The translations under genes were made by a program, and so were the position numbers. The notes beneath the pieces are model-generated. The model had not been told where the DNA came from. It did no database searches and was given only the letters and a program-made list of their open reading frames with translations. A stretch of 64,000 bases of DNA, from the NCBI RefSeq assembly GCF_054482595.1, contig NZ_CM137008.1. One strand, written 5' to 3'. Positions 47,194-53,052 of the stretch are shown piece after piece. How positions within the stretch are numbered: position 1 is the first letter of the stretch; the number at the start of each line of letters is the position of its first letter.

Positions 47194-49244
47194 TGAGCGC
47201 GCTCAACTCCCTGCCATTACCGGTGGTCAGGCTGCTGGCGTTCTTTCATGAAGAGTTAAGCGAGCGGCGACCAGGTCGCGTGCCGCAGACCGTGCAACTC
47301 TGGGTAGGCTGCCTGCTGGTGATTCTGATCTCGATGACTTTTGAGATCCCTTTTGTGGCGTTATCGCTGGCAGTGCTGTTTTACGGTATTCAGTCGAACG
47401 CGTTTTACACCAAATTTGTCGCGATCTTGTTTGTGGTTGCCACGGTGCTGGAGATCGGCAGCCTGTTTTTGATCTACAAATGGTCATACGGCGAACCGTT
47501 GATCCGCTTGATCATCGCCGGACCGATCCTGATGGGCTGCATGTTTTTGATGCGCACCCATCGCTTGGGGCTGGTCTTTTTCGCCGTCGCCATTGTCGCT
47601 ATTTACGGGCAAACCTTCCCCGCCATGCTCGACTATCCGGAAGTGGTCGTGCGCTTAACGCTGTGGTGTATCGTTGTTGGCCTCTATCCAACCTTGCTGA
47701 TGACGTTAATCGGCGTGCTGTGGTTTCCCAGTCGTGCCATTTCGCAAATGCATCAGGTGCTTAATGATCGGCTTGATGATGCCATTAGCCACCTGACGGA
47801 CAGCCTCGCACCGCTACCCGAAACGCGGATTGAAAGAGAGGCGCTGGCGCTGCAAAAACTCAATGTCTTTTGCCTCGCGGACGATGCCAACTGGCGAACC
47901 CAGAGTGCATGGTGGCAAAGCTGCGTGGCAACGGTAACCTACATTTACTCGACGCTGAATCGCTACGATCCCACCTCTTTTGCTGATTCTCAGGCAATTA
48001 TTGAATTCCGACAAAAATTAGCTTCAGAAATCAACAAGCTGCAGCATGCCATTACCGAAGGTCAGTGCTGGCAAAGCGACTGGCGGATCAGTGAAAGTGA
48101 AGCGATGGCGGCACGGGAATGTAACCTGGAGAATATCTGCCAGACACTGTTACAGCTTGGTCAGATAGACCCGAATACGCCGCCAACGCCCGCAGCCAAA
48201 CCGCCATCAATGGCCGCCGATGCTTTTACCAATCCAGACTATATGCGCTACGCGGTAAAAACGCTGCTCGCCTGTTTGATCTGTTACACCTTCTACAGCG
48301 GCGTGGACTGGGAAGGCATTCACACCTGTATGCTGACCTGCGTGATCGTCGCTAATCCGAATGTCGGTTCATCGTACCAGAAGATGGTGCTGCGTTTTGG
48401 CGGGGCCTTTTGCGGCGCGATTCTGGCGCTGTTATTCACGCTACTGGTCATGCCCTGGCTGGACAATATTGTCGAATTGCTGTTTGTGCTGGCACCGATT
48501 TTCCTGTTGGGCGCATGGATTGCCACCAGCTCTGAACGCTCTTCTTATATCGGCACACAGATGGTGGTTACCTTCGCGCTCGCCACGCTCGAAAACGTTT
48601 TTGGCCCGGTGTACGACCTGGTGGAAATTCGCGATCGCGCCCTGGGTATCATCATTGGTACCGTGGTGTCCGCGGTGATTTACACCTTTGTCTGGCCTGA
48701 AAGTGAAGCGCGCACGCTGCCGCAAAAACTGGCTGTCGCGCTGGGTATGTTAAGTAAAGTAATGCGGATCCCACGCCAGCAGGAAGTCACGGCTCTGCGC
48801 ACTTATCTGCAAATTCGTATAGGTCTGCATGCGGCGTTTAATGCCTGTGAAGAGATGTGCCAACGCGTGGCGCTGGAGCGTCAACTGGACAGCGAAGAAC
48901 GCGCCTTACTGATTGAACGTTCGCAAACGGTTATTCGTCAGGGCCGCGATCTTCTTCACGCCTGGGATGCCACCTGGAACTCGGCGCAGGCGCTGGATAA
49001 CGCACTACAGCCGGACAGAGCAGGTCAGTTTGCCGACGCTCTGGAAAAATACGCTGCCGGTCTGGCAACCGCACTCAGCCGTTCTCCTCAAATAACGCTT
49101 GAAGAGACACCCGCCTCGCAGGCCATCCTGCCCACCTTATTAAAACAGGAGCAACACGTCTGCCAGCTTTTCGCCCGCTTGCCAGACTGGACAGCCCCGG
49201 CATTAACGCCCGCCACGGAACAGGCACAAGGAGCCACACAATGA
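47193..49244 (+). CDS. mdtO: inner-membrane efflux component (aromatic acid exporter-like)
   Basis: 683 aa polytopic protein; TAATG stop/start overlap with mdtN. Confidence 0.88.
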   Translation: MSALNSLPLPVVRLLAFFHEELSERRPGRVPQTVQLWVGCLLVILISMTFEIPFVALSLAVLFYGIQSNAFYTKFVAILFVVATVLEIGSLFLIYKWSYGEPLIRLIIAGPILMGCMFLMRTHRLGLVFFAVAIVAIYGQTFPAMLDYPEVVVRLTLWCIVVGLYPTLLMTLIGVLWFPSRAISQMHQVLNDRLDDAISHLTDSLAPLPETRIEREALALQKLNVFCLADDANWRTQSAWWQSCVATVTYIYSTLNRYDPTSFADSQAIIEFRQKLASEINKLQHAITEGQCWQSDWRISESEAMAARECNLENICQTLLQLGQIDPNTPPTPAAKPPSMAADAFTNPDYMRYAVKTLLACLICYTFYSGVDWEGIHTCMLTCVIVANPNVGSSYQKMVLRFGGAFCGAILALLFTLLVMPWLDNIVELLFVLAPIFLLGAWIATSSERSSYIGTQMVVTFALATLENVFGPVYDLVEIRDRALGIIIGTVVSAVIYTFVWPESEARTLPQKLAVALGMLSKVMRIPRQQEVTALRTYLQIRIGLHAAFNACEEMCQRVALERQLDSEERALLIERSQTVIRQGRDLLHAWDATWNSAQALDNALQPDRAGQFADALEKYAAGLATALSRSPQITLEETPASQAILPTLLKQEQHVCQLFARLPDWTAPALTPATEQAQGATQ

Positions 49245-50707
49245 TCAATCGTCAACTTTCACGTCTGCTGTTGTGCAGCATTCTCGGCAGCACGACGCTG
49301 ATTTCCGGCTGTGCCCTGGTACGCAAGGATTCTGCGCCTCATCAACAGCTCAAACCGGAACAAATCAAACTGGCCGATGATATTCATCTTGCCAGCTCCG
49401 GCTGGCCGCAGGCGCAGTGGTGGAAACAACTCAATGACCCGCAGCTGGATGCGCTGATCCAACGGACGCTAAGTGGTTCACACACCCTCGCCGAAGCGAA
49501 ACTGCGGGAAGAAAAAGCGCAGTCCCAGGCCGATTTGTTAGATGCCGGTTCACAATTACAGGTCGCAGCGTTAGGGATGCTCAACCGCCAACGCGTCTCG
49601 GCGAACGGCTTTTTAAGCCCTTATGCGATGGATGCGCCAGCACTGGGTATGGACGGGCCGTACTATACGGAAGCCACAGTAGGTTTGTTTGCCGGACTGG
49701 ATCTTGATTTGTGGGGTGTGCATCGCTCAGCGGTTGCCGCCGCCATTGGCGCGCATAATGCCGCGCTGGCAGAAACCGCAGCAGTAGAGCTATCGCTGAC
49801 CACGGGCGTAGCGCAGCTTTATTACAGTATGCAGGCCAGCTATCAGATGCTCGATCTGTTAGAACAAACTCGCGATGTGATTGATTACGCGGTGAAAGCG
49901 CACCAGAGTAAAGTGGCGCAAGGTCTGGAAGCGCAAGTGCCTTTCCACGGCGCGCGGGCACAGATTCTGGCGGTCGATAAACAAATTGCTGCCGTCAAAG
50001 GGCAAATCACCGAAACGCGAGAATCTCTGCGTGCATTGATTGGCGCGGGAGCCAGCGATATGCCGGAGATCAAACCTGTAGCATTACCACGAGTTCAGAC
50101 CGGCATTCCGGCGACACTCTCTTATGAGTTGCTCGCCAGACGCCCGGATCTGCAAGCCATGCGCTGGTATGTTCAGGCGTCATTAGATCAGGTGGATTCC
50201 GCGCGGGCGTTGTTCTACCCGAGCTTTGATATCAAAGCGTTTTTCGGCCTTGATGCCATCCACCTGGATACCTTATTCAAAAAAACCAGTCGCCAGTTCA
50301 ACTTTATCCCGGGTCTGAAATTGCCGCTGTTTGACGGTGGACGGTTGAATGCCAATCTCGAAGGCACGCGCGCCACCAGCAACATGATGATTGAACGTTA
50401 CAACCAGTCAGTACTGAACGCGGTGCGTGACGTTGCCGTCAACGGCACGCGTCTGCAAACGCTCAACGACGAGCGAGAAATGCAGGCTGAACGCGTGGAA
50501 GCCACGCGCTTCACCCAGCGCGCTGCCGAGGCCGCCTATCAGCGCGGCTTAACCAGCCGCTTACAGGCCACTGAAGCCCGGTTGCCAGTACTTGCCGAAG
50601 AGATGTCATTACTGATGCTGGACAGCCGCCGGGTGATCCAAAGCATTCAGTTGATGAAATCGCTGGGCGGCGGGTATCAGGCGGCTCCCGTCGTCGAGAA
50701 AAAATAA
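49241..50707 (+). CDS. mdtP: outer-membrane efflux channel (TolC-family lipoprotein)
   Basis: 488 aa; lipobox LISGC; 4-bp overlap with mdtO. Confidence 0.88.
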   Translation: MINRQLSRLLLCSILGSTTLISGCALVRKDSAPHQQLKPEQIKLADDIHLASSGWPQAQWWKQLNDPQLDALIQRTLSGSHTLAEAKLREEKAQSQADLLDAGSQLQVAALGMLNRQRVSANGFLSPYAMDAPALGMDGPYYTEATVGLFAGLDLDLWGVHRSAVAAAIGAHNAALAETAAVELSLTTGVAQLYYSMQASYQMLDLLEQTRDVIDYAVKAHQSKVAQGLEAQVPFHGARAQILAVDKQIAAVKGQITETRESLRALIGAGASDMPEIKPVALPRVQTGIPATLSYELLARRPDLQAMRWYVQASLDQVDSARALFYPSFDIKAFFGLDAIHLDTLFKKTSRQFNFIPGLKLPLFDGGRLNANLEGTRATSNMMIERYNQSVLNAVRDVAVNGTRLQTLNDEREMQAERVEATRFTQRAAEAAYQRGLTSRLQATEARLPVLAEEMSLLMLDSRRVIQSIQLMKSLGGGYQAAPVVEKK

Positions 50708-50715
50708 AATGTCTG

Positions 50716-50750
50716 CCGCGTGATGGCTGTCACGCGGTATTTCGTTTCGT
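50716..50750 (+). terminator. rho-independent terminator downstream of mdtP
   Basis: ccgcgtga / tcacgcgg stem with loop tggctg, followed by tatttcgtttcgt. Confidence 0.7.
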
Positions 50751-50837
50751 CACGTCAAAACTGACGACAGCCTGTTTTTCGTCAGAGTTTTGAATAAATA
50801 GTGCCCGTAATATCAGGGAATGACCCCAAATAAAATG

Positions 50838-50853
50838 TGGCATAAAAGATGCA
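50838..50853 (+). promoter_or_regulatory. sigma54 (-24/-12) promoter of fdhF
   Basis: TGGCAT-N5-ATGCA with GG-to-GC spacing of 12 nt, about 50 bp upstream of the fdhF ATG; fdhF is an established sigma54/FhlA-dependent gene. Confidence 0.8.
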
Positions 50854-50904
50854 TACTGTAGTCGAGAGCGCGTATGCGTGATTTGATTAACTGGAGCGAG
50901 ACCG

Positions 50905-53052
50905 ATGAAAAAAGTCGTCACGGTTTGCCCCTATTGCGCATCAGGTTGCAAAATCAACCTGGTCGTCGATAACGGCAAAATCGTCCGGGCGGAGGCAGCG
51001 CAGGGGAAAACCAACCAGGGTACCCTGTGTCTGAAGGGTTATTATGGCTGGGATTTCATTAACGATACCCAGATCCTGACCCCGCGCCTGAAAACCCCCA
51101 TGATCCGTCGCCAGCGTGGCGGCAAACTCGAACCTGTTTCCTGGGATGAGGCACTGAATTACGTTGCCGAGCGCCTGAGCGCCATCAAAGAGAAGTACGG
51201 TCCGGATGCCATCCAGACGACCGGCTCCTCGCGTGGTACGGGTAACGAAACCAACTATGTAATGCAAAAATTTGCGCGCGCCGTTATTGGTACCAATAAC
51301 GTTGACTGCTGCGCTCGTGTCTGACACGGCCCATCGGTTGCAGGTCTGCACCAATCGGTCGGTAATGGCGCAATGAGCAATGCTATTAACGAAATTGATA
51401 ATACCGATTTAGTGTTCGTTTTCGGGTACAACCCGGCGGATTCCCACCCAATCGTGGCGAATCACGTAATTAACGCTAAACGTAACGGGGCGAAAATTAT
51501 CGTCTGCGATCCGCGCAAAATTGAAACCGCGCGCATTGCTGACATGCACATTGCACTGAAAAACGGCTCGAACATCGCGCTGTTGAATGCGATGGGCCAT
51601 GTCATTATTGAAGAAAATCTGTACGACAAAGCGTTCGTCGCTTCACGTACAGAAGGCTTTGAAGAGTATCGTAAAATCGTTGAAGGCTACACGCCGGAGT
51701 CGGTTGAAGATATCACCGGCGTCAGCGCCAGCGAGATTCGTCAGGCGGCACGGATGTATGCCCAGGCGAAAAGCGCCGCCATCCTGTGGGGCATGGGTGT
51801 AACCCAGTTCTACCAGGGCGTGGAAACCGTGCGTTCTCTGACCAGCCTCGCGATGCTGACCGGTAACCTCGGTAAGCCGCATGCGGGTGTAAACCCGGTT
51901 CGTGGTCAGAACAACGTGCAGGGTGCCTGCGATATGGGCGCGCTGCCGGATACGTATCCGGGATACCAGTACGTGAAAGATCCGGCTAACCGCGAGAAAT
52001 TCGCCAAAGCCTGGGGTGTGGAAAGCCTGCCAGCGCATACCGGCTATCGCATCAGCGAGCTGCCGCACCGCGCAGCGCATGGCGAAGTGCGTGCCGCGTA
52101 CATTATGGGCGAAGATCCGCTGCAAACTGACGCGGAGCTGTCGGCAGTACGTAAAGCCTTTGAAGATCTGGAACTGGTTATCGTTCAGGACATCTTTATG
52201 ACCAAAACCGCGTCGGCGGCGGATGTTATTTTACCGTCAACGTCGTGGGGCGAGCATGAAGGCGTGTTTACTGCGGCTGACCGTGGCTTCCAGCGTTTCT
52301 TCAAAGCAGTTGAACCGAAATGGGATCTGAAAACGGACTGGCAAATCATCAGTGAAATCGCCACCCGTATGGGTTATCCGATGCACTACAACAACACCCA
52401 GGAGATCTGGGATGAGTTGCGTCATCTGTGCCCGGATTTCTACGGTGCGACTTACGAGAAAATGGGCGAACTGGGCTTCATTCAGTGGCCTTGCCGCGAT
52501 ACTTCAGATGCCGATCAGGGGACTTCTTATCTGTTTAAAGAGAAGTTTGATACCCCGAACGGTCTGGCGCAGTTCTTCACCTGCGACTGGGTAGCGCCAA
52601 TCGACAAACTCACCGACGAGTACCCGATGGTACTGTCAACGGTGCGTGAAGTTGGTCACTACTCTTGCCGTTCGATGACCGGTAACTGTGCGGCACTGGC
52701 GGCGCTGGCGGATGAACCTGGCTACGCACAAATCAATACCGAAGACGCCAAACGTCTGGGTATTGAAGATGAGGCATTGGTTTGGGTGCACTCGCGTAAA
52801 GGCAAAATTATCACCCGTGCGCAGGTCAGCGATCGTCCGAACAAAGGGGCGATTTACATGACCTACCAGTGGTGGATTGGTGCCTGTAACGAGCTGGTTA
52901 CCGAAAACTTAAGCCCGATTACGAAAACGCCGGAATACAAATACTGCGCCGTGCGCGTCGAGCCGATCGCCGATCAGCGCGCCGCCGAGCAGTACGTGAT
53001 TGACGAGTACAACAAGTTGAAAACTCGCCTGCGCGAAGCGGCACTGGCGTAA
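50905..53052 (+). CDS. fdhF: formate dehydrogenase H (selenocysteine-containing molybdoenzyme)
   Basis: Track ORFs 50905..51324 and 51373..53052 are in the same frame, separated only by TGA at 51322-51324; reading through gives 715 aa with ...NNVDCCARV-U-HGPSVAGLHQSVGNGAMSNAINE... Confidence 0.93.
51322..51370 (+). other. fdhF: UGA selenocysteine codon plus downstream SECIS hairpin
   Basis: In-frame TGA at 51322-51324 followed immediately by a stem-loop-forming segment (ggttgcag gtct ctgcacc core). Confidence 0.85.

Follow-up and report, generated by a model that had tools for sequence, protein, structure and literature searches.

In Escherichia coli, the sigma-54 promoter of fdhF and the upstream activating sequence recognized by FhlA have reportedly been the subject of studies by Birkmann and Bock in 1989, Schlensog et al. 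in 1994, and Leonhartsberger et al. in 2000. Three further FhlA-dependent control regions of strain K-12, those of hycA-hypA, hydN and hyfA, are built like that of fdhF, each combining a sigma-54 element with a cluster of YGTCR or TTCGwCA half-sites located approximately 30-110 bp upstream. The hyc-hyp spacer carries TTTCGTCG and TTTCGACA, both of the TTCGwCA type, within a group of seven YGTCR motifs, and its half-sites, counted by eye, match only part of the idealized FhlA consensus; hydN displays TGTCA, TGTCA, CGTCAC, TGTCG and TGACA within 36 bp, and hyfA harbors a single YGTCR palindrome, TTCGACAC-N-GTGTCG, with TTCGwCA on the minus strand. These regions differ from fdhF in the number, orientation and spacing of their half-sites, and the hyc-hyp region, unlike that of fdhF, serves two divergent promoters. 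In addition, IHF has been reported to aid hyc and hyp (PMC2636881), whereas fdhF shows no evident conserved IHF site. NorR, likewise a GAF-domain enhancer-binding protein, acts at norVW through several short inverted repeats upstream of a sigma-54 promoter, where three GT-N7-AC sites are present and all are required (PMC2831303); this system differs from fdhF in its protein, motif and signal (nitric oxide), and a third site at fdhF is putative.

The window analyzed here, a stretch of 64,000 nucleotides, is part of the E. coli chromosome and includes mdtP and fdhF, separated by a spacer of 197 bp (Table 1). Positions 50600-51000, and with them the spacer itself, match many complete E. coli genomes at 100% identity, and mdtP followed by fdhF is annotated in 5,419 of 5,426 complete genomes of the species, at one place per genome, in agreement with the gene assignment made in the original prediction. 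The reading frame of mdtP ends with a TAA stop codon (50705-50707), while that of fdhF is continued through an in-frame TGA (51322-51324), its selenocysteine codon 140; the Rfam family SECIS_2 matches directly after this codon (51317-51371, plus strand, 87 bits, E 2.6e-19), a known feature that confirms the identity of the gene. The promoter and enhancer treated below are the known, textbook control region of fdhF itself and not a relative of it. A reading of the letters alone had recovered both at the right coordinates, which holds nothing new for fdhF regulation; what is added here is a cross-genus footprint that narrows the enhancer to two TTCGwCA-based palindromes and a GTCAC motif at a fixed distance from them.

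Table 1. Features of the mdtP-fdhF region, in window coordinates
Feature	Position	Strand	Basis
mdtP CDS, outer-membrane efflux subunit	49241..50707	+	ORF list; RefSeq annotation of identical locus
mdtP intrinsic terminator hairpin	50714..50739	+	terminator scan; folding
Distal GTCAC in 3' arm of terminator stem, candidate third FhlA half-site	50729..50733	+	footprint
T-rich tail TTTCGTTTCGT, two overlapping TTTCGT FhlA-type half-sites	50740..50750	+	sequence
FhlA enhancer site 1, TTTCGTCA-CGTCAAAACTGACGAC	50745..50768	+	FhlA matrix; conservation; motif clusters
FhlA enhancer site 2, TTTTTCGTCAGAGTTTTGA	50775..50793	+	inverted repeats I3, I5; direct repeat D4
Conserved block between enhancer and promoter, CCGTAATATCAGG ... 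AATac CCaCA ATAAAA	50805..50835	+	alignment
Sigma-54 promoter, TGGCATAAAAGATGCA	50838..50853	+	RpoN matrix; ChIP-seq identity; conservation
Predicted transcription start, 41 nt before ATG	50864	+	rule of PMC4591121
Small GC palindrome GCGCGTATGCGTG, fdhF 5' leader	50868..50880	+	alignment
Shine-Dalgarno GGAG, 8 nt before ATG	50893..50896	+	invariant TGGAGC block in alignment
fdhF CDS	50905..53052	+	two in-frame ORFs parted by TGA; annotated as selenocysteine-containing

A near-consensus -24/-12 element had been proposed about 50 bp upstream of fdhF, and it is present on the plus strand, ending 52 nt ahead of the ATG. Direct reading of the sequence gives TGGCAT (50838-50843), AAAAG, and ATGCA (50849-50853); compared with the pattern TGGCAC-N5-TTGCW, the GG doublet of the -24 region (50839-50840) and the GC doublet of the -12 region (50851-50852) lie 12 bp apart, as in sigma-54 promoters. 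When both strands of the window (approximately 128,000 positions) were scored with an RpoN matrix representing 186 promoters (PMC7658346, Table 2), the element obtained 13.8 of 21.2 bits and rank 2, and a simple sigma-70 scan of 50500-51100 yielded no sigma-70-like promoter. Furthermore, the 17-mer GTGGCATAAAAGATGCA is identical to site OS41 in the ChIP-seq map of sigma-54 in E. coli, an identity that bears out the sigma-54 call; OS41 is assigned to fdhF, stands 41-fold above threshold, is marked as experimentally confirmed in EcoCyc, and is listed with a predicted start-to-gene distance of 41 nt (PMC4591121). The start site of Table 1 follows from the rule of the same study, which places it 19 nt downstream of the motif centre. 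The mdtP-fdhF spacer was also recovered by genomic SELEX with RpoN holoenzyme, a measure of binding in vitro (PMC8743547), and the Salmonella homologue of the fdhF site, TGGCATAAAACATGCATA, was bound in ChIP-chip, the gene at this site being listed as FhlA-activated and rising 29-fold with a constitutive activator (PMC3844500). Occupancy by sigma-54 and dependence on FhlA and formate are taken here from the literature. The top match to the RpoN matrix in the window is a separate motif, TGGCAGACGTGTTGCT (49150-49165, minus strand, 15.2 bits), which lies antisense within the 3' end of mdtO; neither this motif nor mdtO or mdtP was found in the main text and tables of PMC4591121.

Upstream of the promoter, a palindrome had been quoted as a candidate activator site for FhlA, composed of gtcacgtcaaaactgacgac (50749-50768) and ttttcgtcag (50776-50785) and spanning -115 to -79 relative to the predicted start at 50864. 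Its position at activator distance and its content both hold: it carries half-sites of the published consensus (PMC4987338), it has TTCGwCA in common with the enhancers of hyc-hyp and hyfA, and across genera no part of the spacer is better conserved. The most apt description of the enhancer is a pair of related imperfect palindromes, inverted relative to each other and centred near -104 and -78, since site 2 read on the minus strand (TCAAAACTCTGACGAAAAA, centre approximately -78) repeats site 1 with a spacer longer by 2 nt (TCAAAACTCTGACGAAA as compared to CGTCAAAACTGACGA). Site 1, the top match to the published FhlA matrix within the spacer, contains the palindrome CGTCA-N4-TGACG (50753-50766, centre approximately -104). 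A repeat search identified the inverted arms CTGACGA/TCGTCAG and TCAAAACT/AGTTTTGA, as well as a direct repeat of TTTCGTCA at 50745 and 50777, with a spacing of 32 bp. The two sites together occupy 50745-50793, that is, positions -119 to -71 if the predicted start is taken as reference, and lie within the distance of approximately 70-150 bp upstream that is quoted for enhancers of sigma-54 promoters (PMC3844500).

The same segment stands out from the rest of the window, being its only dense cluster of CGTCA/TGACG together with TTTCGT. Four copies of CGTCA/TGACG within 45 bp do not recur at any other place of the 64 kb (Poisson estimate approximately 0.02, corrected for the windows scanned), and TTTCGT, present at 50740, 50745 and 50777, forms here the sole triple within 50 bp among its 29 occurrences in the window (approximately 0.002). 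The published models of the complete site are less discerning. The FhlA enhancer consensus of Leonhartsberger 2000, CATTTCGTACGAAATG, as tabulated in PMC4987338, includes TTTCGT as its half-site, and over its full length of 16 bp the best match reaches 9/16; the 14-bp FhlA matrix of PMC7658346 gives the main palindrome 8.1 bits, rank 119 in the window, and was discarded as a detector on account of its degeneracy. An attempt at back-inferring the fdhF 14-mers in the training set of this matrix gave ambiguous results and was dropped. The fdhF site is, in summary, recognizable at the level of its half-sites, and neither published full-length FhlA model singles it out.

In order to delimit the elements across species, loci were collected with the first 139 residues of FdhF as query and one genome per species, which gave 80 loci with the position of the ATG fixed; 34 spacers from approximately 30 enterobacterial genera were aligned, and columns conserved in at least 90% of the sequences were scored. 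Such columns are limited to TCGwCA-CGTCAA...TGACGA, TTTCGTCAG, TGGCAT...TGCAT, and the ribosome-binding block. The site 1 block is near-invariant across the approximately 30 genera as TCGaCACGTCAAnnnTGACGA, with diverging flanks, and in site 2 the motif TTTCGTCAG is similarly near-invariant, GTTTTGa being moderately kept. A second, ungapped alignment of 48 sequences with mutual identities below 85%, anchored on CGTCA-N4-TGNCG, yields the consensus tTCGaCACGTCAAat.TGACGA..gcCTG.tTTTCGTCAG..tTTtg. The more distant Atlantibacter and Arsenophonus possess the variant palindromes TGACAC-TTTT-GTCGA and TGTCA-TTTA-TGTCGA, which fit a TGTC-N6-GACA-like matrix. Between the enhancer and the promoter lies the additional conserved block listed in Table 1. 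A candidate IHF site in this potentially looping spacer, TATCAGGGAATGA, agrees at 8 of 9 specified positions, with approximately 0.09 such matches expected by chance and an unconserved TTR part, and was rejected.

The gene that precedes fdhF varies among these loci. MdtP was employed as a tblastn query against the fdhF loci to establish synteny; Escherichia, Salmonella arizonae, Kluyvera, Superficieibacter and Pseudocitrobacter alone have a full-length mdtP immediately ahead of fdhF, partial or remnant matches being present in two further loci (L023 and L024). In many other genera the neighbour is a divergent gene whose product starts with MKPAILVVDDD and which we take to be a response regulator. 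The enhancer-promoter cassette travels together with fdhF.

These observations make it very probable that the 197-bp spacer controls fdhF in response to formate. Following the general scheme of enhancer-dependent sigma-54 transcription (PMC3844500) and what has been described for FhlA (PMC11291172, PMC4987338), sigma-54 RNA polymerase on the -24/-12 element would form a closed complex that is unable to start alone. Formate-bound FhlA would occupy 50745-50793, from approximately -120 to -70, recognizing an upstream activating sequence in which the TTCGTCA/TGACGA half-sites are arranged as the two related imperfect palindromes, although its exact contacts are our proposal. The intervening DNA of approximately 50 bp would presumably be looped so that FhlA meets the polymerase, and ATP hydrolysis by FhlA would open the promoter, with transcription proceeding from near 50864. 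Upstream, the hairpin and T-rich tail (50714-50750) would end transcription of mdtNOP and spare the enhancer from readthrough, an insulating role that we infer.

Two other explanations of the conserved blocks at 50745-50793 deserve consideration. The repeats lie just downstream of mdtP and include short inverted repeats, and could on these grounds act at the RNA level in the mdtNOP transcript, for example as an additional terminator or a stabilizing 3' structure, with no role in the activation of fdhF. As RNA, however, the enhancer stretch folds no better than its shuffled counterparts (z -0.77, with 41 of 200 shuffles folding equally well), no Rfam family matches in the mdtP-fdhF spacer, it is the sequence and not the pairing that is conserved, and the blocks are kept in genera whose upstream gene is not mdtP. 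RNA structure was rejected for these repeats on the strength of the folding and Rfam results, which also indicate that the conservation is that of duplex DNA sequence, as protein sites would show, and a role confined to the mdtNOP transcript is extremely improbable.

If the blocks are protein sites, the protein could be a regulator other than FhlA, for instance NarL/NarP, ModE, CRP or FNR, through which fdhF would be controlled; fdhF has been reported to be repressed by nitrate via NarL and influenced by molybdate via ModE (PMC2636881), and the core of the terminator hairpin, GTGA-N6-TCAC, resembles the core of a CRP site. The half-sites nevertheless match the FhlA half-site consensus and recur in other FhlA-dependent enhancers, and no palindrome of the ModE or FNR type is visible in 50745-50793. 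The spacing of GTGA and TCAC, moreover, shifts between genera, which a CRP site could not tolerate, and the CRP reading of the hairpin core was rejected for this reason. Control of fdhF by another protein bound to these blocks is very improbable, while a second regulator acting in the spacer block at 50805-50835 is possible.

The terminator that precedes the enhancer has a core hairpin with the arms CCGCGTGA (50716-50723) and TCACGCGG (50730-50737), extended in the terminator scan to a stem of 11 pairs that includes 6 G-C pairs and closes on a loop of 4 nt. As RNA it folds with -19.6 kcal/mol (z -4.3), a value equalled by 0 of 200 shuffles. The stem begins shortly past the stop codon and leads into TTTCGTTTCG, so that both the GC-rich hairpin and the T-rich tail of an intrinsic terminator are present; its efficiency is uncertain, because C and G interrupt the T-tail. 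The full hairpin is found only in mdtP-linked loci, with weaker traces where a fragment of mdtP remains. Among 12 loci inspected by eye, compensatory changes maintain it in Kluyvera and Salmonella arizonae, as in Kluyvera cryocrescens, where GCCGCGTGA/TCACGCGGC is replaced by GCCGCATGA/TCATGCGGC, and in Superficieibacter and Pseudocitrobacter it is rebuilt from different bases. A T-rich tail follows the hairpin in most mdtP-linked genera, being poor in Pseudocitrobacter, and the genera that lack mdtP at this place are C-rich at the corresponding position.

It had been suggested that the palindrome overlaps this hairpin and that one sequence may serve as both terminator and activator site. With regard to the stem, the overlap does not stand, since the stem ends at 50739 and the quoted palindrome starts at 50749; it does hold for the T-rich tail, at 50740-50750. 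The dual use of sequence likewise fails for the quoted palindrome and the stem, whereas a case can be made for it in the T-tail and in a conserved GTCAC of the 3' arm. The latter leads to an extension of the FhlA-based explanation, in which the enhancer might reach further upstream to include GTCAC as a third FhlA half-site and the T-tail of half-sites, the same DNA acting as a terminator when transcribed into RNA and as an activator site when in duplex form. We regard this extension as tentative, and somewhat less likely to be true than false.

Several observations speak in its favor. In 25 of 33 thinned loci without an upstream mdtP, GTCA(C) is present 21-25 nt upstream of the CGTCAA anchor, while the bases that flank it and the linker of 17-21 nt vary freely across the 33 loci; the background chance of GTCA in a window of 5 positions is 0.016, although the lineages are related and a binomial P is inflated, overstating their independence. 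Every mdtP-linked genus (Escherichia, Salmonella arizonae, Kluyvera, Pseudocitrobacter and Superficieibacter) uses GTCA in the descending arm, even in rebuilt hairpins, GTCAC doubling there as terminator arm. Further copies of GTCAC are present in site 1 (TTCGTCAC) and the hydN enhancer (ATCGTCAC), and the GTCA copies at 50729, 50749 and 50781 follow each other at 20 and 32 bp, approximately 2 and 3 helical turns, which would place them on one helical face, in keeping with the one-sided binding of DNA that has been stated for FhlA (PMC11291172). The requirement for all three sites at norVW provides a precedent for the need of a third site. On the other hand, a motif of 4-5 nt could persist for another reason, such as binding of another factor or as a relic of an ancestral terminator, and its offset drifts by up to 2 nt either way.

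We read this pattern as suggesting that a distal control element of fdhF may have been incorporated into the terminator of a gene that arrived upstream. Enhancer and terminator would in that event be physically interleaved, GTCAC forming the descending arm and the TTTCGT half-sites encoding the U-tract, an arrangement that we consider doubtful. If it were true, the terminator would have been assembled around pre-existing enhancer bases once mdtNOP lay upstream, and the binding of FhlA could affect, and be affected by, termination or readthrough of mdtNOP; should FhlA contact GTCAC, the locus would offer a small, clean case of a DNA stretch under two constraints, one as RNA terminator and one as protein-binding site. 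Neither the fixed distance of GTCAC nor its placement in the terminator stem was described in the literature searched, which comprised papers other than the primary footprinting studies, and both may be known.

Additional features of the spacer are of a minor nature. The small GC palindrome of the fdhF leader is kept in many genera and deleted in Enterobacter, Lelliottia and Citrobacter sedlakii; as an RNA hairpin it was rejected for now, given that compensatory changes are absent and that the leader has a z of +0.76 against shuffles. An exact direct repeat of 11 nt, AAATAAAATGT, occurs on the plus strand at 50702-50712, across the mdtP stop codon, and at 50828-50838, where it adjoins the -24 element; the copy at the stop codon is altered in E. 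albertii, and the repeat is therefore probably due to chance in AT-rich sequence. In Enterobacter, Lelliottia and Citrobacter sedlakii, finally, the distal GTCAC is preceded by TGACGGAAATTyAAyCC, located approximately 40-45 nt upstream of the CGTCAA anchor (loci L011, L048, L057, L062, L063, L065, L068 and L070). A wider inverted repeat is formed there, (G)TGACG ... (C/T)GTCAC, with its arms approximately 17 nt apart, and the element could represent an additional activator site of these genera.
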